Shown one piece after another: positions 7,657-27,519 of a stretch of DNA of 32,000 nt; the stretch's first letter is position 1, and every line of letters begins with the position of its first letter. The translations under genes were made by a program, and so were the position numbers. The notes under the pieces are model-generated. The model was not told where the DNA came from and ran no database searches. It saw only the letters and a program-made list of their open reading frames with translations. The stretch is from Psychrobacter sp. DM4 (lineage in GTDB: Bacteria > Pseudomonadota > Gammaproteobacteria > Pseudomonadales > Moraxellaceae). Location: positions 2,730,001 through 2,762,000 of the forward strand of contig NZ_CP195536.1 of assembly GCF_051307035.1 (NCBI RefSeq). The letters run 5' to 3'.

Positions 7657-7917
7657 ATGACTCAACAGATTGAACTGTTTGACATTGCCAATCCCTGCGT
7701 TAGTGTGTGCGAGGTCAATAAAAAGGGCTATTGCTTCGGCTGCCTGCGCAGTCGTACTGAGCGTCAACTATGGCTAAGCATGAGTACGGAGCAGCGTCGT
7801 GAGGTATTAAGGCTAATCGTAGGACGTAAGCAGCGTATCGAGCAGATGCGACTGCTTAAAGGGCAACAGTTAGGCTTTGATTTTGAGGTAGTGGTCGAGG
7901 CTGGGGAGTTGTTTTAG
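7657..7917 (+). CDS. DUF1289-type small cysteine-rich protein (YdhL-like)
   Basis: N-terminal NPCVSVCEVNKKGYCFGCLRSRTE matches the Cys-x3-Cys...Cys-x2-Cys DUF1289 pattern. A strong AAGGAGG Shine-Dalgarno lies 7 nt upstream. Confidence 0.8.
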   Translation: MTQQIELFDIANPCVSVCEVNKKGYCFGCLRSRTERQLWLSMSTEQRREVLRLIVGRKQRIEQMRLLKGQQLGFDFEVVVEAGELF

Positions 7918-8154
7918 ATATGTAGACTTAAATAATCTACTAATAACTTAGTAGTTATCTTGGCTAGCTCAACTGTATTCAGTAATTTAGGCGTGTTAGC
8001 TAAAATACTAGGTTTAAGTGCTTTTAAAATAAAACTTTGCTTACAACATTTATTAAAGTGCTAACAGTACGCAGCGAACTTTTATCAAAAAGTGTAGCGT
8101 AGTCAAATGATAGCAAATAAATATAGCTCAGAATTGAGTTCTAGTTCAATTCGC

Positions 8155-9354
8155 TTATTGAGAAACTCTCCCAATCCACTCGTTATATATAAAATCAATC
8201 AAAAACTTCAACTTCTCGTAATCATAATTACCATTGTTATGATTGAACTTTAGGAACTTTCTTGTATGTCTATCTTTATCAATCAATTCACCTTGATAAG
8301 CATCCAATGATTTATTATATGAAGTCCATCTAATACAAGATTCCGTACTGTCAATGACTGAATGATCTAAGAAACATTCAATGGCTACAGCTGTACCGTT
8401 AATATTTTCGAAGCTTTCACCTTGTGGACCTATTGTCTTATAAGATTCAAAAGATGCGTGATTTGGTAGCTTGATAATATGCATATTGGATGGAACATCC
8501 ATTTCACTTAGCTGATTGTATTTAGCCACACCTGCTACGTCATTATCAAATATAACTAAAACATTTTTTTCAATGCCAATACTTATAAGCCCTTTACAGA
8601 AGTTATAAAGGTTCCCATCTCCCGTAAATGGATAATTATCCTCCATGTCGATAAATTTGAAAAAATCAGAGATATCTAAATATAATAACTGTATGGCTTT
8701 CTTTAGTATGTGAGTATCTGACGAACCTTCTGTAACAAATAAAATTTCCTGACCTACACCTACTTTTTCAAAAATTTCATCTCTACGAACCCAGCCATTA
8801 TTGACTATATCAGCATAACTCCAAAAAACATCAAGATCATTATTAGCCTGATTTTCAGCTAAAATACGTAATGTAATATAAGGATCAATATTCTCAAAGA
8901 CCAATCCAATATCTTTATCTACTATCTCTGACAAATTATGTATTTTATTAAATTCTGAGTGTTTAAATAAGTACTTGGAAAGGAACTCTCCAGGGTTATA
9001 ATCTTCCCACTCATCACCAAGCGTCATTTTAGAAATATCTAAATTAGATATAATTGAGTAGAAATCGTCAAATGGTAGAGGTATATCAGGATAATACTCT
9101 GGAACTTCATTTAAATGATCTTCATACTGCTTTTTAAGAGAATCTAGATTGTAGCCAAGAAGGTCTAAACGTCTTTTTGTTGATCCAAGTTTTCGACTTA
9201 AGCCTTCTTTATATTCAATAATATTATCCGAATAATAATAAGGGATATCTTTTACATCACTGAGCTGAAATAAAGAGCCATGATCGCTGTAATAGTTATT
9301 TTTACCCCAATCTAATTCTAGTTTCCCAATACCAAATGAAACCATTGAACCCAT
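8155..9354 (-). CDS. Orphan Toprim-domain (OLD/DUF4435-like) protein with an uncharacterised N-terminal domain; candidate single-gene defence nuclease
   Basis: 399-aa ORF in a conspicuously AT-rich stretch. Hand counts of two 60-nt lines gave about 32-35% G+C; one parE line was 60%, and flanking genes looked mid-40s by eye (not counted). The C-terminal half carries ILFVTEGSSDTHILKKAI (Glu209, codon 8728-8730) and VLVIFDNDVAG (Asp270-Asn-Asp272, 8539-8547). This is the acidic Glu plus DxD arrangement of Toprim. A GAGGAA Shine-Dalgarno precedes the ATG. There is no Walker A motif. Confidence 0.6.
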   Translation of the reverse strand: MGSMVSFGIGKLELDWGKNNYYSDHGSLFQLSDVKDIPYYYSDNIIEYKEGLSRKLGSTKRRLDLLGYNLDSLKKQYEDHLNEVPEYYPDIPLPFDDFYSIISNLDISKMTLGDEWEDYNPGEFLSKYLFKHSEFNKIHNLSEIVDKDIGLVFENIDPYITLRILAENQANNDLDVFWSYADIVNNGWVRRDEIFEKVGVGQEILFVTEGSSDTHILKKAIQLLYLDISDFFKFIDMEDNYPFTGDGNLYNFCKGLISIGIEKNVLVIFDNDVAGVAKYNQLSEMDVPSNMHIIKLPNHASFESYKTIGPQGESFENINGTAVAIECFLDHSVIDSTESCIRWTSYNKSLDAYQGELIDKDRHTRKFLKFNHNNGNYDYEKLKFLIDFIYNEWIGRVSQ

Positions 9355-9446
9355 ATATATTTCCTCGATTCACTAATAATTAGTTAACCAAGTTAGTTTA
9401 GCAGTTAATTTTTATATCATGAGTATCTTTTTAACCACGCACAAAG

Positions 9447-9479
9447 AAAAGCCCCCTCCGCGTTAGCGAAGGGGGCTTT
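9447..9479. terminator. Bidirectional rho-independent terminator (diverged copy of the rrn terminator)
   Basis: AAAGCCCCCTCCGC-GTTA-GCGAAGGGGGCTTT. It has the same architecture and loop as the terminator at 11029-11062. A compensated stem change (G-C here, A-T there) keeps it foldable. Confidence 0.75.
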
Positions 9480-9490
9480 ATCTAGAATAG

Positions 9491-9679
9491 AGAGCTAACG
9501 ATGACCTGAGCGCCGTAAAAATTGCATGTCAATTTTAGGCAGCGCAAGAGCCAATCCTTTAAATAGGATTGGCTGCGTAGATCACATGGGCGAACCACAC
9601 TACCATTGGCGCTACGATGTTTCACTTCTGAGTTCGGTAAGGGATCAGATGGTTTTGTCACGATATTGTCGCCGACTGA
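9491..9679 (-). pseudogene. Degenerate 5S rRNA copy interrupted by a ~74-nt insertion
   Basis: It aligns with the intact 5S at 11072-11189, including a 43-nt perfect block (9595-9637 = 11107-11149). The helix I strands no longer pair. 9508-9581 is an insertion replacing ACTC of the intact copy. Confidence 0.8.
9508..9572. repeat. ~65-nt two-hairpin repeat element, copy 1 (inside the 5S pseudogene)
   Basis: GAG..GTAAAAATTGCATGTCAATTTTAG..GCAAG..GCCAATCCT-TTAAAT-AGGATTGGC. It is homologous to 14560-14625. Confidence 0.7.
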
Positions 9680-9794: not shown

Positions 9795-10946
9795 ATGCTA
9801 AAGAAATTATTTAAACCAAAATTTGTCAAATACGATAATAAGTACATTACCTTAACCAAAGAAGATGACAAGATTATCGATACGATTACCGAAGATATTC
9901 GTCTGTTTGTCAAAAAGAGCAAAGCGTTAAACGATACTGATCATCATACCCGCGCCGTCCATGCCAAGAGCTATTGCGGCTTCAAAGCAAAGTTCGAAAT
10001 CTTAGACAACCTGCCTAAAGAATACGCTCAGGGTCTATACGCCAAACCCAGTATTCATGACGCGGCAATCAGATTCTCTAATTCATCATCGGCAATTGAT
10101 GCTGATAGGAGACTAGGGTTAGCGATTGGACTAGCGATAAAGATATTTGATGTTCCCGGTAAAAAGCTAGCACCAGGCGAAGAAGACAGCCAAAATGTGG
10201 ATTATGCGCTAGTAAATAGTCCTATCTTCTTTACCAATCAGCTCACAGATTATGCTTATTTATCCAAGCTTAACTTTGGACTTAATGGTTATCTAGGCGA
10301 AGGTTTGATAGGTAGAGGCAAGTTCGTCTTCAACTGGTTGACTCATTACGGCAAAGAGCTCCCTGATATCGAAGGGGTACGCACGCTCAATGCTTTTAGA
10401 AAGATACTCACTACTGCGCCGAAGAATCCACTACTTTATAGCTTCTTTTCACAAGGCGCGTTTCGTCATGGCGATTACATGGCAAAGGTAAGAGTGAAGC
10501 CTACCGAAGCTTCTAATGCCAAGGTCAAGCAGCGTACCATTCATCTATTCACCAAAGACGAAGCCATTCGTCCAACGATCATCGATGAAATCAGAGAGCA
10601 CGACTATCAGTTCGACATTCAAATTCAGCTTTGTCAAAATATTAAGAAGCAGCCTATTGAGGGGCTGACCAAAGAATGGAAGGAGTTGGATGCGCCATTT
10701 GTTACGGTGGCGACTTTGACCATACCTTGTCAGGATATTCCCGAGGACGGTAACGTAGCGGCGATAGAAGACGTGAGCTTTACCACGTTTCGCTGTTTAG
10801 AAGAGAATCGTCCAATCGGTAAGTTACAGCAGTCACGTTTGCGAGCTTATCAAGCGTCTTCTAAAGCCCGTCATGAGCATAACGCAGCTAAGCGCGAAGA
10901 GCCTACTAGCTTAAAGCAGATCTTTAATAAGTCAGCTGCGGAGTAA
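9795..10946 (+). CDS. Catalase-related heme protein (small 'mini-catalase' family)
   Basis: 383 aa with the distal-His motif RAVHAKS (His56). It also has a proximal-Tyr motif SRLRAYQASSKAR (Arg348, Tyr352) resembling catalase R..xY...R. It is much shorter than monofunctional catalases. Confidence 0.75.
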   Translation: MLKKLFKPKFVKYDNKYITLTKEDDKIIDTITEDIRLFVKKSKALNDTDHHTRAVHAKSYCGFKAKFEILDNLPKEYAQGLYAKPSIHDAAIRFSNSSSAIDADRRLGLAIGLAIKIFDVPGKKLAPGEEDSQNVDYALVNSPIFFTNQLTDYAYLSKLNFGLNGYLGEGLIGRGKFVFNWLTHYGKELPDIEGVRTLNAFRKILTTAPKNPLLYSFFSQGAFRHGDYMAKVRVKPTEASNAKVKQRTIHLFTKDEAIRPTIIDEIREHDYQFDIQIQLCQNIKKQPIEGLTKEWKELDAPFVTVATLTIPCQDIPEDGNVAAIEDVSFTTFRCLEENRPIGKLQQSRLRAYQASSKARHEHNAAKREEPTSLKQIFNKSAAE

Positions 10947-11028: not shown

Positions 11029-11062
11029 AAAACCCCCTCACGCGTTAGCGTAAGGGGGTTTT
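11029..11062 (-). terminator. rrn operon terminator (bidirectional hairpin)
   Basis: AAAACCCCCTCACGC-GTTA-GCGTAAGGGGGTTTT, immediately downstream of 5S in the minus sense, with A/T runs on both sides. Confidence 0.85.
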
Positions 11063-11071
11063 GAGGAATAG

Positions 11072-11189
11072 AGCGCTGACGATGACCTACTCTCACATGG
11101 CCGGAGCCACACTACCATTGGCGCTACGATGTTTCACTTCTGAGTTCGGGAAGGGATCAGGTGGTGCCATCGTGCTATTGTCGTCAGCA
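11072..11189 (-). rRNA. rrf: 5S ribosomal RNA
   Basis: The reverse complement reads TGCTGACGACAATAGCACGATGGCACCACCTGATCCCTTCCCGAACTCAGAAGTGAAAC...GTAGGTCATCGTCAGCGCT, with complementary termini forming helix I. Ends are +/- a few nt. Confidence 0.9.
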
Positions 11190-11306: not shown

Positions 11307-14168
<2,862 letters not shown>

Positions 14169-14852: not shown

Positions 14853-16392
<1,540 letters not shown>

Positions 16393-16591
16393 AATCTTGC
16401 TATGAAGCTCTTTAAAGAAGCTTCTAAACTTGGCTCATCTAATCTGGCAAAATCGCTTTAAATTATGTTCGTAATGAATTAACTTTGAGTTTTTCTGCTG
16501 ACTAAATGATAATTTTTATAGTTAATAACTCCTCCGAAAAGAAGAAGTAGTCAACTTTATTTTTAGCATTCTTGTCTCAGCAAAAATCCAC

Positions 16592-16610
16592 ACAAGTTGT
16601 TCTTTAGTTT
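16592..16610 (-). other. 5' strand of the pre-16S processing stem in the rrn leader
   Basis: Perfect 19-nt complement of 14803-14821. Confidence 0.6.
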
Positions 16611-16721
16611 CGCTTTTAAATAGTGTCTCACCTCTGTCGTCCAGTAGGTAAGTATATCCCTTCAATTTGAAGGTTGCTAATAACGAATCCCTTACAGGCT
16701 TTGCTATCTAGCGAGCCGACT

Positions 16722-16749
16722 ATCTTATCATAATGATTGATATTGTCAA
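16722..16749 (-). promoter_or_regulatory. Possible third (proximal) rrn promoter
   Basis: Minus strand TTGACA-N16-TAAGAT. The -35 is consensus but the -10 is weak. Confidence 0.35.
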
Positions 16750-16840
16750 GCTCTTTTATAATTTGTTTCATCCGATTCGCTGGTCGCTATCACTAAGTGT
16801 TCTTAGTGTTTAACCGCTAGCTTGTCTCGATGAGGTGCGT

Positions 16841-16868
16841 ATTATAGACGGTTAAATTGTGGTGTCAA
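16841..16868 (-). promoter_or_regulatory. rrn promoter (P2-like)
   Basis: Minus strand TTGACA-N16-TATAAT, followed by the GC-rich discriminator ACGCACC. An AT-rich UP-element-like tract lies upstream (16869-16900). Confidence 0.75.
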
Positions 16869-16999
16869 GAGGTTATTTAATTTAGTTTGAATGTTTTTAT
16901 TTGAACTACTAAGGTAGTTTGTTTTAACGTTCATTCTAATTATTGGTTCGCTCAATGATAATTCACTTCGCAATCCGCTTTCCCTTTCAACTGGGGCGC

Positions 17000-17027
17000 A
17001 TTATACGTAGATTTTAGATTCGGTCAA
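17000..17027 (-). promoter_or_regulatory. rrn promoter (P1-like)
   Basis: Minus strand TTGACC-N16-TATAAT, followed by the GC-rich discriminator GCGCCCC. Confidence 0.75.
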
Positions 17028-17501
17028 GCGGTTTGAGAGATTTATTTTATATGGTGAGATTTACTATGATTTTGGTGCGTTGGGCGCAGCCTACTGATTG
17101 TTCTTATTATGTGTCAACGACTTCTGGCTATTGATACCTATATAGAAGACTCTAATTCAGACTACTACATGTTAAAAGAACGCAATCTCGCCGTTAGCCT
17201 TGATATGAGTAAGGGAAAAGCAAATGTCTGGGAGACAGTTGCCCTGACGCAAGAGAACATTTACGATTTTCTGTATGTATAGATTTTACTAGGACTCCTT
17301 ATATACTGAGATACCTTGAAGTTTAGGCAGCAACCTACAGAGTGTACTAGATACAAGCAAATAGCGAGATTAGCTACAAAAAATCGTTTATAATAGCCGT
17401 CACCTAGACAACCTATATATGATAACTAGCACTATTGCTGGTTTTTCTGTTTTAATAGCCGTCAGTCATTGATAGCGTTTTAATAAATTTTGGATAAGAT
17501 T

Positions 17502-19963: not shown

Positions 19964-20013
19964 CTGAATACTTATTTAGATCTTTATATTCAAGCAACGT
20001 ATTTGTACTTTTT

Positions 20014-20049
20014 AACCATCAATATGCTGCGGGATATTGATGGTTTTTT
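20014..20049 (+). terminator. Rho-independent terminator after infC
   Basis: A 12-bp perfect stem AACCATCAATAT-(8 nt)-ATATTGATGGTT, followed by TTTT. Confidence 0.85.
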
Positions 20050-20172
20050 ACTTTAAAAGCCTATTATTTATTACCATCTATAACGACAAAGCACTACCCT
20101 TTATTAAGTTAAAATTATAATAATTAGAACCTACATTTGTATTTAAAGATATTAATAACTAAAGGAGATGTT

Positions 20173-21408
20173 ATGCAAGAATTAACCCCACCAGAAAACA
20201 CCTCTACGCCAAGTATTTCTTTGACGCCGCCTGAACCGGTAAAAGAGATTCAAAGAAGCGAAGCGGATCAGATGGTTAAGTTAGATGAGAGTCAAATTCC
20301 AGAGCTCGATGCCAAAGTCGATGCGTTCGTTGATCATGTGTTGACTAATTCTGTGCATAGCCCTGAGTTTCAACAAAACGTGCAATCTATTCATAATTTA
20401 GGTACCAAAGAGATCCGTGAGTCTGCACAGGTCTCTAATCGAATGCTGGACTTACCCGCTAAGAGCCTAAACGACGGTCTGTTTGATAATTCTCCCATTG
20501 CCAAATCGCTTACTGAACTGCGCGGCATCGTAGAAGACTTAGACCCTAGCAAAAAACAATTGACCAGCTCGCGCAAGTTGTTCGGTTTGATCCCCTTTGG
20601 CAATAAAGTGCAAGATTATTTTCGGCAGTATGAGTCAGCACAGTCGCACATTAATGCGGTCGTCACTAGCCTCTATAATGGTAAAGACGAGCTGCTAAAA
20701 GACAATGCCACTATTGAGCAGGAAAAAGTCAATATGTGGGAGCTGATGCAATCGATACGTCAATATGTCTACGTTGGCAAAAAGATCGATGAGCAGCTGG
20801 AGCAAAAAGTCTATGCGATAGAGGCGACAGATCCTGACAAAGCGCGCATCATCAAAGAAGAGATGCTATTTTATGTGCGTCAAAAGAATACGGACTTCCT
20901 AACGCAATTAGCAGTCAATGTGCAAGGTTACTTGGCACTCGATACCATTCGCAAAAATAATTTGGAGCTGATTAAAGGCGTTGATCGTGCGACGACGACT
21001 ACAGTTTCAGCATTACGTACCGCTGTTGTCGTTGCACAGGCAATGACCAATCAAAAACTCGTGCTCGATCAGATTACCGCACTTAATAAAACAACCAGCA
21101 GTTTAATTGAGTCGACCTCTGAGATGCTCAAACGTCAATCGGGTGAAATTCATGAGCAGGCAACCAGTAGCACCATTGAGCTTGATAAATTACAAAACGC
21201 CTTTAATAATGTCTATGACACCATGGACATGATTAGCAACTACAAAATTGAGGCGCTAGAGAATATGAAGCAAACGGTCAATACTTTGACGACTGAAGTG
21301 GATAAAGCTCAAAAGTATCTTGATAAGTCTAATCAGACAACAGTGATAGAGGTGTCAAAGGAGCTTGATAGTAAATCCATAACGGACAAATCTGGTATCG
21401 ACATCTAA
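20173..21408 (+). CDS. telA: TelA-family toxic anion resistance protein
   Basis: 411 aa, all-helical and coiled-coil-like, with TelA-type central blocks (LDPSK...LFGLIPFGNKVQDYFRQYESAQSHINAVVTSL). The ATG at 20173 has an AAGGAG Shine-Dalgarno; the track's upstream extension is rejected. Confidence 0.8.
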   Translation: MQELTPPENTSTPSISLTPPEPVKEIQRSEADQMVKLDESQIPELDAKVDAFVDHVLTNSVHSPEFQQNVQSIHNLGTKEIRESAQVSNRMLDLPAKSLNDGLFDNSPIAKSLTELRGIVEDLDPSKKQLTSSRKLFGLIPFGNKVQDYFRQYESAQSHINAVVTSLYNGKDELLKDNATIEQEKVNMWELMQSIRQYVYVGKKIDEQLEQKVYAIEATDPDKARIIKEEMLFYVRQKNTDFLTQLAVNVQGYLALDTIRKNNLELIKGVDRATTTTVSALRTAVVVAQAMTNQKLVLDQITALNKTTSSLIESTSEMLKRQSGEIHEQATSSTIELDKLQNAFNNVYDTMDMISNYKIEALENMKQTVNTLTTEVDKAQKYLDKSNQTTVIEVSKELDSKSITDKSGIDI

Positions 21409-26077: not shown

Positions 26078-26815
26078 CTAAATATCTAGATATTGTTGTG
26101 CTGCGCTTAAATCTAGTGTGCCCTCATAGATGGCACGGCCTGTAACAATCCCTTCGATACAATCGCCAAAAGGCTTTAGCAGCTCGATATCTTTCATATC
26201 AGTGACGCCACCTGAAGCGATTACAGGCAATCCGCCTTCTCGCGCTAAGTTTACCGTCTGTTCGACATTGACGCCTTGCATCATGCCATCACGGGCAATA
26301 TCAGTATAGACAATGGATGAGACGCCAACATCAGCGAAACGTTTGGCAAGCTCAGTCGCTTTGGTATCAGTAACGTTCGCCCAGCCATGAGTGGCAACCA
26401 TACCGTCTTTGGCATCGATACCGACGATAATATGACCTGCGAACTCGCGACAAGCTTCGGTCACAAATTTAGGGTCTTCAACCGCTTTGGTACCGATGAT
26501 AATGTACGTCAGACCTGCGGTAATGTATTGCTCGATAGTCTGCATGGTACGTACACCGCCACCCAGTTGGATAGGTAGATTGGGATAAGCTTTGGCAATG
26601 TCATGTACCACATCTTTGTGAACCGGTACGCCATCAAAAGCACCGTTCAAATCCACTAGATGCAAGCGTCTTGCACCTGCATCTACCCAGCGCGCTGCCA
26701 TGGCGACAGGATCATCAGAGAATACGGTATCATCCTCCATCCGGCCTTGTTTCAGACGTACACATTTACCATCTTTTAAGTCGATAGCAGGGATAATCAC
26801 TGGAGCAGAACACAT
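26078..26815 (-). CDS. hisA: ProFAR isomerase (histidine biosynthesis)
   Basis: [18 protein letters not shown] at the N-terminus, with GGGVR and ASGGV phosphate-binding motifs. At 245 aa the length is typical of HisA. Confidence 0.92.
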
Positions 26816-27519
26816 ATTTTATTCCTTATAAAAACATAACACTGATGTCATCAACAGTAGAACGTATTGTTTTGATGAGATAGTAGAGCCTGCTAAAAAT
26901 CGGCACTAATATCAAGTAAATTCAATTAGTAACTGGCAATTTTAGGTCAATTTAGCGTATAATCCTAGGTAAATTTGTATTTGTTTTTATAGAATAATCA
27001 TCAGACTTTTGGTTTTTGTAACTAAGTTTGATAGTTGTCAGATATAGGTTATCGAATGATTAAAAGCTAATGAGCTACGTCCTCTACTTTGGTAGGAGTG
27101 GCTCATTTGTCAATTCAACGACAGACTTGCTTGTCGAATCGTTTGGATTTATTTTTTTTGACACGACAAGTTTATTATTAATGGCATGACAGATTCACTC
27201 TTACGAAGTTTGAGCTACTAGTTTGACTATTGTTAGAGCACTCTATCTATCATGTATCTTGGTAGCCGGTCACTAATTGGTACAACGAATAAGATATTGA
27301 CGTGTTGTTAAGGAGTCTAAGGTCAGCGTTGATATTTTTGTTAGCAGTACAGCTTGAGCGTATGTTTTGAGACACTTTATTTTTATTCTTGATCGTTAGT
27401 ATAGATCTAAGAGTAGAGAATTTTAGAATAGAGTGTACTCAATAACCGTTTTGGCGCGCTGCCGTTATACCAAACAGGACGTCTGGTATCGTTTTGAACT
27501 ATGGACTAAGTTTTCGCTT

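Follow-up and report, generated by a model that had tools for sequence, protein, structure and literature searches.

The 32,000-nucleotide stretch of the Psychrobacter sp. DM4 chromosome considered here (contig NZ_CP195536.1, positions 2,730,001 to 2,762,000; hereafter the window) holds a gene for a 399-amino-acid (aa) protein between the DUF1289 gene and a ribosomal RNA (rrn) operon. This gene probably encodes a stand-alone nuclease effector of abortive or direct defence, in which an N-terminal domain, HEPN/Toprim-NTD1 (NTD1), would gate a C-terminal Toprim nuclease domain. The gene arrived alone, on a 1.5-kb cassette that entered a defence hotspot of Psychrobacter. Its N-terminal half is an NTD1 domain, its C-terminal half carries a Toprim signature at the level of the clan, the gene stands alone, it was transferred recently between species, and the site that it occupies holds defence genes in other species. 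Judged by its domain matches, the protein is a member of the HEPN/Toprim-NTD1 plus TOPRIM family, which was described computationally in 2013, modelled in Pfam and named at NCBI; the Psychrobacter copy, the hotspot and the transfer history are new observations.

NTD1 domain and family membership

Residues 1-198 match the Pfam model PF18871 with E=1.8e-38 and 133.1 bits against a gathering cut-off of 25, over profile positions 1-219 of 223. The first-pass annotation of this DNA, made from the letters alone, had judged this half, which it left unassigned, reminiscent of the modules fused to either HEPN or Toprim effectors, and the match bears this out. The same model matched all 122 divergent family members (30-50% identity to the window protein) that were used as the conservation set. 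Both features that define the family are therefore found in the window protein, namely an N-terminal domain that matches PF18871 above the gathering score and a nuclease-type C-terminal effector fused to it, the latter through the Toprim-clan signature in the C-terminal 200 aa. NTD1 is less conserved than the C-terminal half, with a mean top-residue frequency of 0.37 compared with 0.52.

HEPN/Toprim-NTD1 was described as an alpha+beta domain of ~240 aa, whose alternative fusion partners are two HEPN families, a TOPRIM nuclease and an Mrr-type restriction endonuclease (REase) (Anantharaman, Makarova, Burroughs, Koonin & Aravind 2013, PMC3710099). The text of that study names the HEPN partners MAE_18760 and ERFG_01251, the first of which appears as MAE_28990 in its Table 2 (PMC3710099). 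Such N-terminal domains were proposed to bind viral targets and to restrain the C-terminal toxin, in an abortive infection (Abi)-like role as sensor or antitoxin plus toxin (PMC3710099).

The protein had been called an orphan, which does not hold: one homology search gave 743 homologues at E<=1e-3, almost all of them 390-420 aa long and aligned over their full length, with identity still ~50% to those of Lactobacillus iners, Aerococcus, Desulfosporosinus and Caproicibacterium. Several homologues, including plasmid ones, carry the NCBI name "HEPN/Toprim-associated domain-containing protein". A profile of the C-terminal domain, searched against 1.84 billion representatives, found at least 1,382 clusters (50% identity), of which 446 reach E<=1e-30; the best 150 matches all belonged to the family itself, so the search yields family size only. 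Most of these 150 are ~400 aa long with the match in their C-terminal half, and the shorter ones look like fragments. The family spans Firmicutes, Proteobacteria, Actinobacteria, Spirochaetes and Campylobacterota, including Lactobacillus iners and plasmids of E. coli and Yersinia. As prior characterisations, DARNA/PD-T7-3, HEC systems, bacterial Schlafens and domain-centric screens were considered, and the architecture of none of them matches; one recent domain-centric screen explicitly left out single-gene systems. Exact-sequence look-ups for the window Toprim protein and for its neighbours ORF383, YqiA and DUF1289 found none on record.

A probable divergent Toprim domain in the C-terminal half

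The open reading frame (ORF), which begins with MGSMVSFGIGKLELDWGKNNYY, and the residues singled out in the first-pass annotation were confirmed codon by codon: E209 (codon 8728-8730) lies inside ILFVTEGSSD, and D270 (8545-8547) and D272 (8539-8541) lie inside VLVIFDNDVAG. Eight positions are strictly invariant in 122/122 members of the conservation set (E209, G210, D270, D272, G275, P297, E326 and L329), and a further nine are conserved in at least 90% of them (T208, D213, D236, N271, D330, W343, Q354, G355 and K360). Beyond the core, in the C-terminal extension, conservation reaches 122/122 for E326, 121/122 for both K360 and W343, and 117/122 for D330. No counterpart has been assigned to this extension, which may contribute to a second metal site or to binding of the substrate.

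The layout of these residues fits the Toprim superfamily. In the family, E209 stands within a T-E-G motif at the predicted end of the first beta-strand, and the DxD follows ~60 residues later at the predicted end of the third. A full-length AlphaFold2 (AF2) model (predicted local distance difference test, pLDDT, 82; predicted template modelling score, pTM, 0.84; C-terminal domain alone, pLDDT 84) places strands at residues 204-208, 232-235, 264-269 and 291-295, alternating with helices, with E209 and the DND motif modelled at the C-terminal ends of the first and third strands; the extension (residues 297-399) has pLDDT values of 77-97. This order of strands and helices, with Glu and DxD at strand ends, is said to be the Toprim core layout expected after the work of Aravind in 1998.

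Profile comparisons point to the same clan. When the 122 members were scanned against Pfam at a lax threshold, weak matches were obtained to Toprim_2 (47/122, best E 1.3e-4), Toprim_4 (34/122, 4.7e-3), Toprim (30/122, 2.7e-3), OLD-like_TOPRIM (17/122, 9.5e-4) and Toprim_3 (7/122, 7.6e-3). Besides PF18871, the recurrent families were all of the Toprim clan, unrelated families recurring in at most 4 of the 122 members. The matches are in register: positions 6/7-67 of the 67 of OLD-like_TOPRIM map to window residues 205/206-272, and positions 2-69/83 of Pfam Toprim to residues 205-275/285. DUF4435, one of the matches named as possible at first, is missing from the families that two or more of the 122 members matched.

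A comparison was also made with a profile of 32 sequences, comprising phage P2 Old and the homologues found with the full-length query (a C-terminal fragment query gave 3 fragments). The invariants of this profile include E398, G399, D453 and D455. A local hhalign comparison of the C-terminal domain with the Old Toprim region scored 24.8 (P=0.0055) and aligned residues 205-270 with Old 394-455. All controls were lower, with 60 column-shuffled profiles at 14.5 +/- 2.8 (maximum 23.5), cross-domain comparisons at P=0.39-0.5 and a reversed profile at P=0.17. In a first, longer alignment, W343, G355 and K360 fell within 0-2 positions of the Old invariants W537, G540 and K550, which is only suggestive. 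Comparison of the family profile with the single ParE Toprim sequence of the window was uninformative. When the 122-sequence profile was searched against the sequences of the Protein Data Bank (PDB), the only natural proteins found were T7 primase-helicase chains, at the Toprim DxD segment (E=0.3-1), and the further matches obtained with the protein and with family profiles, likewise non-significant, were chromodomain and designed-repeat noise; the conserved RW...YQG...K hairpin (residues 341-360, 8275-8334) weakly matches chromodomains at E=0.3-1, probably by chance. On this comparative evidence it is concluded that the C-terminal half represents a divergent Toprim-clan domain, which at family thresholds falls outside OLD, DUF4435 and the other curated families.

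A recently transferred single-gene cassette

The AT-rich islet noticed at first has a G+C content (GC) of 0.310 over 1,503 bp (7923-9425), compared with a window average of 0.449 (z = -4.8), and is the lowest-GC stretch of the 32 kb. The baseline consists of the non-overlapping 1,503-bp windows of the same 32 kb (mean 0.449, standard deviation 0.029, minimum 0.389). The Toprim gene itself has a GC of 0.315, and 0.247 at third codon positions, while the flanks stand at 49% (parE), 43% (YqiA-like gene), 49% (DUF1289) and 43% (ORF383); the 60% once counted for parE holds for a single line of sequence and not for the whole gene. Shorter low-GC stretches (0.32-0.37) are also found at 16401-17200, just upstream of the 16S gene, at 20001-20400 and at 26801-27200.

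The distribution of the gene was surveyed at 42 loci, all from other species of Psychrobacter, anchored on the adjacent YqiA-like gene. Only 2 of these 42 species have the Toprim gene at this site: a metagenome-assembled genome (L049) with a complete copy of 98% protein identity, and P. immobilis Liston1000 (L045) with a copy of 96% identity, truncated where the contig ends. In the same two genomes, YqiA is only 54-58% and DUF1289 74-75% identical to the window. In a sliding comparison with L049 (5912-7436), identity stays at 92-100% from ~9425 to ~7923, and falls to 67-85% inside DUF1289 and ~75% in the terminator on the other side. Since the cassette is far closer than its flanks and the identity breakpoints are sharp, it is concluded that the 1.5-kb cassette was transferred horizontally between species, and recently, as the first description of the gene as acquired accessory cargo had implied. 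The limits given then for the islet (7918-9446) fit the recombination breakpoints (~7923 and ~9425-9433) almost exactly. The high identity to L049 ends precisely with the cassette and does not reach into the core genes, into which simple homologous recombination in the flanks should have carried it. The right border abuts the DUF1289 stop codon, the stop itself varying by cargo type, and the left border follows the T-tract of the terminator. No att- or attC-like border motif was found to be shared among cargo types beyond this T-tract and the DUF1289 3' end.

Within the cassette, the reading frame is intact over 399 codons. Compared with L049 it shows 12 synonymous and 8 non-synonymous codon differences, none of them at family-conserved sites, and this synonymous excess may be taken as a rough sign of purifying selection. 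The Shine-Dalgarno sequence lies 7 nt 5' of the ATG, and a possible extended -10 was read by eye further upstream (Table 1), in a leader whose positions 9363-9422 are 100% identical to L049; a consensus scan listed no minus-strand promoter there. In P. immobilis (L045, 1036-2400), an IS256-family transposase interrupts the same cassette downstream of the Toprim gene, in the 3' untranslated region that precedes the conserved right border.

The gene has no evident companion, in agreement with the earlier statement that both an ATPase domain and a partner gene are lacking. The cassette contains no second credible ORF (all others are at most 48 aa long and expected by chance), no direct-repeat array and, apart from 5S and the terminator at its flank, no Rfam match. 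On the same three results, both a type III-like RNA antitoxin and a small partner ORF were rejected. No ATPase family was matched by the window protein or by any of its 122 relatives.

A defence hotspot between the rrn terminator and DUF1289

The order ParE-YqiA-DUF1289 is kept in 42/42 loci and is followed, where the contig continues, by a variable interval, the rrn terminator, 5S, 23S and 16S. The interval measures 87 bp to 2.5 kb in loci with the rrn side seen; its GC is 30-35% in all of these, and rises to as much as 45% among three loci that the contig end truncates. Across loci it holds ~30 unrelated protein clusters, nearly all co-oriented with rrn. The identifiable cargo consists mostly of recognised or candidate defence genes (Table 1), such that the window gene lies in a variable hotspot enriched in known defence genes. 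The presence of known defence cargo at the same site gives independent, location-based evidence that the window cassette is a defence gene.

Many cargo clusters lack a Pfam match, including proteins in L043 (456 aa), L024 (442 aa), L044 (301 aa), L032 (342 aa) and L034 (275 + 219 aa), and the Pfam-less cargo of the surveyed loci (L010-L051) provides candidate new single- or two-gene defence systems. A 178-aa ORF recurs beside DUF1289 with differing upstream cargo (SduA, GmrSD, RelA_SpoT), and the smallest intervals are filled by a 102-aa ORF in 8 species.

Genomic contexts of homologues

No partner gene is conserved across the homologue contexts inspected. The Desulfosporosinus homologue lies in a defence island with CD-NTase, EVE-HNH, PLD-nuclease and GIY-YIG genes. 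P0016 is a lone gene among housekeeping genes, and P0015 lies between plsY and an ABC transporter. P0019 (L005 2441-3628) is a split copy of 65 aa + 303 aa beside an integrase, a TacA-type toxin-antitoxin (TA) module with its acetyltransferase, and Fic. In L. iners (L007/L008/L009 7557-7988), the copy is found 12 bp downstream of a 143-aa XRE-type helix-turn-helix (HTH) gene, adjoined by an integrase arm-binding fragment and a C5 DNA methylase. The HTH gene may act as transcriptional regulator of the system in this lineage; it is absent from the Psychrobacter cassette. Relatives at 71-73% identity are found at other loci. Several close relatives (71-77% identity) are split or truncated, among them P0019, P0015 and P0070. 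This points to frequent pseudogenisation, the fate expected of a gene that is costly or toxic.

Among mobile elements, 50 of 72,556 plasmids carry the family, 16 of them conjugative and 8 mobilizable. The copy on an E. coli IncX7 plasmid adjoins an AbiEii toxin gene, and one on a Xanthomonas plasmid lies among hypothetical genes. Phage records gave a single partial match among 50,697, covering the C-terminal domain only. This match (MT836369.1 1024-1530; residues 204-368, 36% identity) is in an unannotated 10.8-kb "Bacteriophage sp." contig from human faeces, and could be a phage-borne stand-alone Toprim domain or a fragment.

Flanking sequences

The core flanks were correctly recognised at first on the DUF1289 side, where the gene matches PF06945, and less so on the other: rrn is not directly adjacent, and the Toprim gene is separated from the intact 5S by a second, decayed copy of 5S and by ORF383, an unrelated ORF of 383 aa. 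The rrn operon is wholly on the minus strand, with 16S at 14853-16392, two tRNAs, 23S at 11308-14167 and 5S at 11074-11188. The intact 5S has its own terminator T1 at ~11029-11062 (minus strand), and T2, immediately upstream of the Toprim gene, is a second copy of this rrn 5S terminator. The 5S-plus-terminator module is thus duplicated, as intact 5S with T1 and pseudogene with T2, and homologous terminators sit after 5S in other Psychrobacter loci. T2 had been described as bidirectional, which is unsupported because it is called on the minus strand alone. That it insulates a toxic gene from rrn read-through is speculation.

The pseudogene retains an Rfam 5S match of 38.7 bits at 9585-9676. Its core carries a "TTCGCC" variant, as in the 5S of L049, and not the CTCCGGCC of the intact 5S of its own operon. 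The insertion that interrupts it contains a hairpin (GCCAATCC..GGATTGGC). In L030, L041 and L047, the same ~70-nt element separates 5S from a duplicated 5S 3' end, and its recurrence marks it as an old feature of the locus. ORF383 (9795-10946, plus strand) lies between the intact 5S and the pseudogene and has a host-like GC of 0.43. It has no Pfam, NCBIfam, PADLOC or PDB sequence match, and no homologue was found in any of the 42 Psychrobacter loci. An R..HAK motif, seen by eye only, is presumably reminiscent of catalase-like haem proteins.

Table 1. Coordinates of features in the window, and alternative cargo of the same site in other Psychrobacter loci
Feature	Position or locus	Strand	Description
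NTD1-Toprim ORF	8155..9354	-	399 aa; stop codon 8155-8157
HEPN/Toprim N-terminal domain 1, residues 1-198	8761..9354	-	Pfam PF18871; predicted sensor or autoinhibitory module
Putative Toprim core, residues 204-296	8467..8745	-	predicted beta1 ends in E209, beta3 in D270-N271-D272
Conserved C-terminal extension of putative nuclease domain, residues 297-399	8158..8466	-	E326, D330, W343, Q354-G355, K360
Horizontally transferred single-gene cassette	7923..9433	-	~1.5 kb, GC 0.31; identity breakpoints against L049
5' leader	9355..9447	-	Shine-Dalgarno GAGGA (9362-9366), possible extended -10 TGATATAAA (9411-9419)
AT-rich 3' untranslated/intergenic part of cassette	7918..8154	-	converges on DUF1289; 92-97% identity to L049
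DUF1289 gene	7657..7917	+	PF06945, E=1.2e-16; core flank, right border of hotspot
Intrinsic terminator T2	9448..9479	-	14-bp stem, 9 G-C pairs, T-tail; called on minus strand only
Decayed second 5S rRNA copy	9485..9676	-	mutated 5' part, ~78-nt internal insertion 9507-9584; left flank of hotspot
Cargo: Shedu SduA	L021 (split copy in L023)		PADLOC E=1.6e-165
Cargo: CAP12/Pycsar-type TIR effector	L050, L022, L040		PADLOC E=6.8e-47
Cargo: PIN_12 protein	L050, L022 alongside TIR effector; truncated copy L018		Pfam E=7.2e-32
Cargo: GmrSD-like protein	L030		PADLOC PDC-M55C and HEC-05 models
Cargo: AbiJ N-terminal domain protein	L027		Pfam AbiJ_NTD4, E=2.1e-15
Cargo: HEPN_RiboL-PSP protein	L020		Pfam E=3.8e-6, 27.4 bits, just below 28.4 cut-off
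Cargo: RelA/SpoT-like protein	L025		Pfam RelA_SpoT; PADLOC PDC-S33
Cargo: DUF3800 protein	L051		Pfam E=1e-11
Cargo: IS256-family transposases	L022, L045, L015		Pfam Transposase_mut, E=1.5e-117

Proposed mechanism and alternative explanations

In the mechanism that we infer, NTD1 would keep the C-terminal Toprim nuclease inactive and would sense an infection cue, which could be a phage protein, a nucleic-acid structure or a small nucleotide product. Once activated, the Toprim site (E209, D270/D272) would cut nucleic acid by metal-ion catalysis, with D213/D236 and E326/D330 probably adding metal ligands and K360 aiding catalysis or substrate binding. Cleavage would halt phage replication, most likely by growth arrest or death of the infected cell (abortive infection). 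The substrate could be tRNA or some other RNA, with AriB and P2 Old as models, or it could be DNA, for which OLD and GajA provide reported examples. Since NTD1 precedes RNases (HEPN) as well as a DNase (Mrr), the choice of target is not limited by the sensor. Precedents exist for several of these steps. Catalysis by Toprim immune effectors involves two metal ions, and the Toprim effector AriB, a tRNase of this two-metal kind, is freed from an ATPase sensor (PMC12409363). P2 Old was recently reported to cut tRNA (PMC12445682; 2026 OLD preprint). ApeA is activated by a ligand in a pocket separate from its HEPN active site (bioRxiv 10.64898/2026.01.26.701840), and DARNA is a HEPN tRNase activated by single-stranded DNA.

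A wider proposal can be put forward more tentatively. NTD1-Toprim proteins may be widespread immune effectors that are free of partners and of ATPases, in which NTD1 senses the cue directly and unleashes a Toprim nuclease, possibly a tRNase, the same sensor being reused before HEPN and REase domains; the rrn-terminator/DUF1289 site would then act as a natural cassette exchanger for single-gene systems of this kind.

Several observations weigh against the reading of the window gene as an NTD1-gated Toprim defence nuclease. The Toprim metal-binding layout proposed at first is upheld by the residues invariant in the 122 members, by the in-register weak matches and by the Old comparison, but not by the window protein itself, which has no Toprim-family Pfam match at E<=1, and all Toprim profile matches of its relatives are below the curated cut-offs. 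The hhalign probability against Old is only 7-14%, so that the comparison gives modest support. Hidden Markov model searches of the PDB sequences, with the protein and with family profiles, gave no significant match. Structure prediction followed by Foldseek, suggested earlier as a check, was favourable as to the model, with E and DxD at strand ends, and in the search nothing in PDB or BFVD was matched at E<=1e-3. The top non-significant matches were Rossmann-like folds (RadA/Rad51, glutamate racemase, PurE, lipase, CheB-type), of which RadA, the racemase and PurE stood above the OLD structure 6njv. Scans of the window protein with PADLOC (v2), also suggested as a check, PHROGs and NCBIfam gave zero matches, and no experimental paper on the NTD1-Toprim architecture was found in the literature searched. 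Finally, some homologues lie among housekeeping genes without defence neighbours, and the argument from location for a defence role is indirect.

Among the alternatives, it could be that the protein is a nuclease effector serving mainly in conflicts between mobile elements (exclusion of plasmids or of integrative and conjugative elements, addiction, stabilisation), with anti-phage immunity not its main role. The 50 plasmids that carry the family, conjugative and mobilizable ones among them, are consistent with such a role, as are the copies beside TA or Abi-type modules (AbiEii on IncX7; TacA/acetyltransferase and Fic near P0019) and integrase remnants. However, the window copy is chromosomal, its cassette contains no integrase, replicon or antitoxin, the alternative cargo of the site is dominated by recognised anti-phage systems, and a lone toxic gene without antitoxin would make a poor addiction module, so this alternative is considered unlikely.

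It is less likely again that the C-terminal domain is another Rossmann-like alpha/beta domain, such as a nucleotide- or metal-binding hydrolase or a signalling domain, with a convergent likeness to E/DxD. The lack of a significant fold match, the identity of the top Foldseek hits, the missing Pfam match of the window protein and the low hhalign probability all speak for it. The OLD C-terminal region (6njv) ranked 46th with the full model and 19th with the domain model. On the Toprim side, about 10 of the top 50 BFVD matches were annotated Toprim proteins (DnaG, twinkle, primase-helicase, topoisomerase), at a root-mean-square deviation of 4-6 Å over ~100 columns and a probability of up to 0.90. 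Against convergence, five Toprim-clan families and essentially no others recur among the weak matches, always over the E..DxD stretch; the Old comparison scores above every one of the 60 shuffles and of the cross-domain controls; the matches among PDB sequences include no natural protein other than T7 primase Toprim chains; and the fusion partner was classed as TOPRIM in the 2013 analysis (PMC3710099).

The gene could also be a silent or decaying passenger, functionless in its host, as foreign AT-rich DNA might be if, for example, xenogeneically silenced behind two terminators. Its composition, its place behind T1 and T2 and the empty promoter scan would fit, as would the split or truncated relatives (P0019, P0015, P0070) and the L045 copy, with IS256 in its 3' region and substitutions. 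This is very unlikely, given that a frame of 399 codons is intact in DNA of 31% G+C, where stop codons are frequent, with a canonical ribosome-binding site, substitutions that are biased towards synonymous ones and all family-invariant residues kept.

A housekeeping nucleic-acid enzyme tied to rrn or DNA metabolism (RNase M5-like 5S maturase, primase- or RecR-like) can practically be dismissed: RNase M5, DnaG, RecR and topoisomerases do carry Toprim domains (PMC12409363), and the gene is just downstream of 5S sequences and co-oriented with rrn, but it is present here in only 2/42 other Psychrobacter species, is foreign in composition and recently transferred, has homologues elsewhere that are not beside rrn, lacks an NCBIfam equivalog match, and bears an NTD1 otherwise fused to HEPN and REase toxins. 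An RNase M5-like link to 5S processing was ruled out by this distribution and context.

Altogether, from its sequence and setting, the window gene is a credible candidate for single-protein immunity, from a family predicted in 2013. To our knowledge, the Toprim nucleases shown to act in bacterial immunity are all under the control of an ABC ATPase, whether fused or separate (OLD, GajA, AriB, AbiL, retron-associated OLD) or of a reverse transcriptase (Retron-Eco2). The NTD1-Toprim family pairs Toprim with a different module, one that is also placed before HEPN RNases and an Mrr REase. If the wider proposal is true, the family would provide the first case of a Toprim defence nuclease gated neither by an ABC ATPase nor by a reverse transcriptase, and if defence and an NTD1 cue were shown, a new sensor-effector pairing would be added and three effector fusions explained at once. 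The family is widespread, and absent from PADLOC v2 and from the experimental literature searched. The Psychrobacter site, from rrn terminator to stop codon, is a clean natural experiment in which ~30 cargo families have been swapped, and it may be useful for mining single-gene systems.

Comparison with known systems

With the OLD family (P2 Old, class 1/2 OLD, GajA), the window protein has in common the Toprim E...DxD signature, the best profile alignment being to Old 394-455, and a role in defence or abortive infection, which for the window protein is predicted. OLD and GajA couple Toprim to an N-terminal ABC-type ATPase, whereas the window protein, with PF18871 as its N-terminal half, has no ABC ATPase, AAA or SMC-type match and no helicase partner like GajB. 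No GajA or OLD-type match was given by PADLOC. Because it lacks the ATPase, the protein is not OLD or GajA.

In PARIS, a DUF4435-type Toprim protein, AriB, is accompanied by the adjacent ABC ATPase AriA. A Toprim effector held inactive until an infection cue appears would be common to both, by analogy. However, the window family shows no recurrent DUF4435 match, no AriA-like ATPase gene is nearby, PADLOC gave no PARIS match and the cassette is one ORF, so the window protein is not AriB. Its sensing would have to reside in the fused NTD1 and not in AriA.

ApeA, a single-gene HEPN anticodon nuclease activated by deoxydinucleotides, offers a like logic, with a single polypeptide that joins a nuclease at its C-terminus to a module for regulation or ligand binding at its N-terminus and, by analogy, with abortive infection as the outcome (bioRxiv 10.64898/2026.01.26.701840). 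It had first been cited as an example of the N-terminal module seen here, which it is not: ApeA has its own ApeA-NTD1, of ~300 aa and mostly beta, compared with ~240 aa and alpha+beta for HEPN/Toprim-NTD1 (PMC3710099). The effectors also differ, HEPN in ApeA and Toprim in the window protein, in which neither the C-terminal HEPN domain with Rx4-6H nor any ApeA model was matched in Pfam or PADLOC. With no HEPN and a different N-terminal domain, the window protein is not ApeA, which is thus an architectural analogue and not a relative.

Retron-Eco2 resembles the window protein in having a Toprim effector fused to a non-ATPase sensing module in one polypeptide (PMC12916289, PMC12405507). Its reported sensor is a reverse transcriptase with multicopy single-stranded DNA, whereas the window protein has no reverse transcriptase and its cassette no non-coding RNA. 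The closest likeness is to the HEPN/Toprim-NTD1 plus TOPRIM fusions themselves, with which the window protein shares the same architecture without structural difference.

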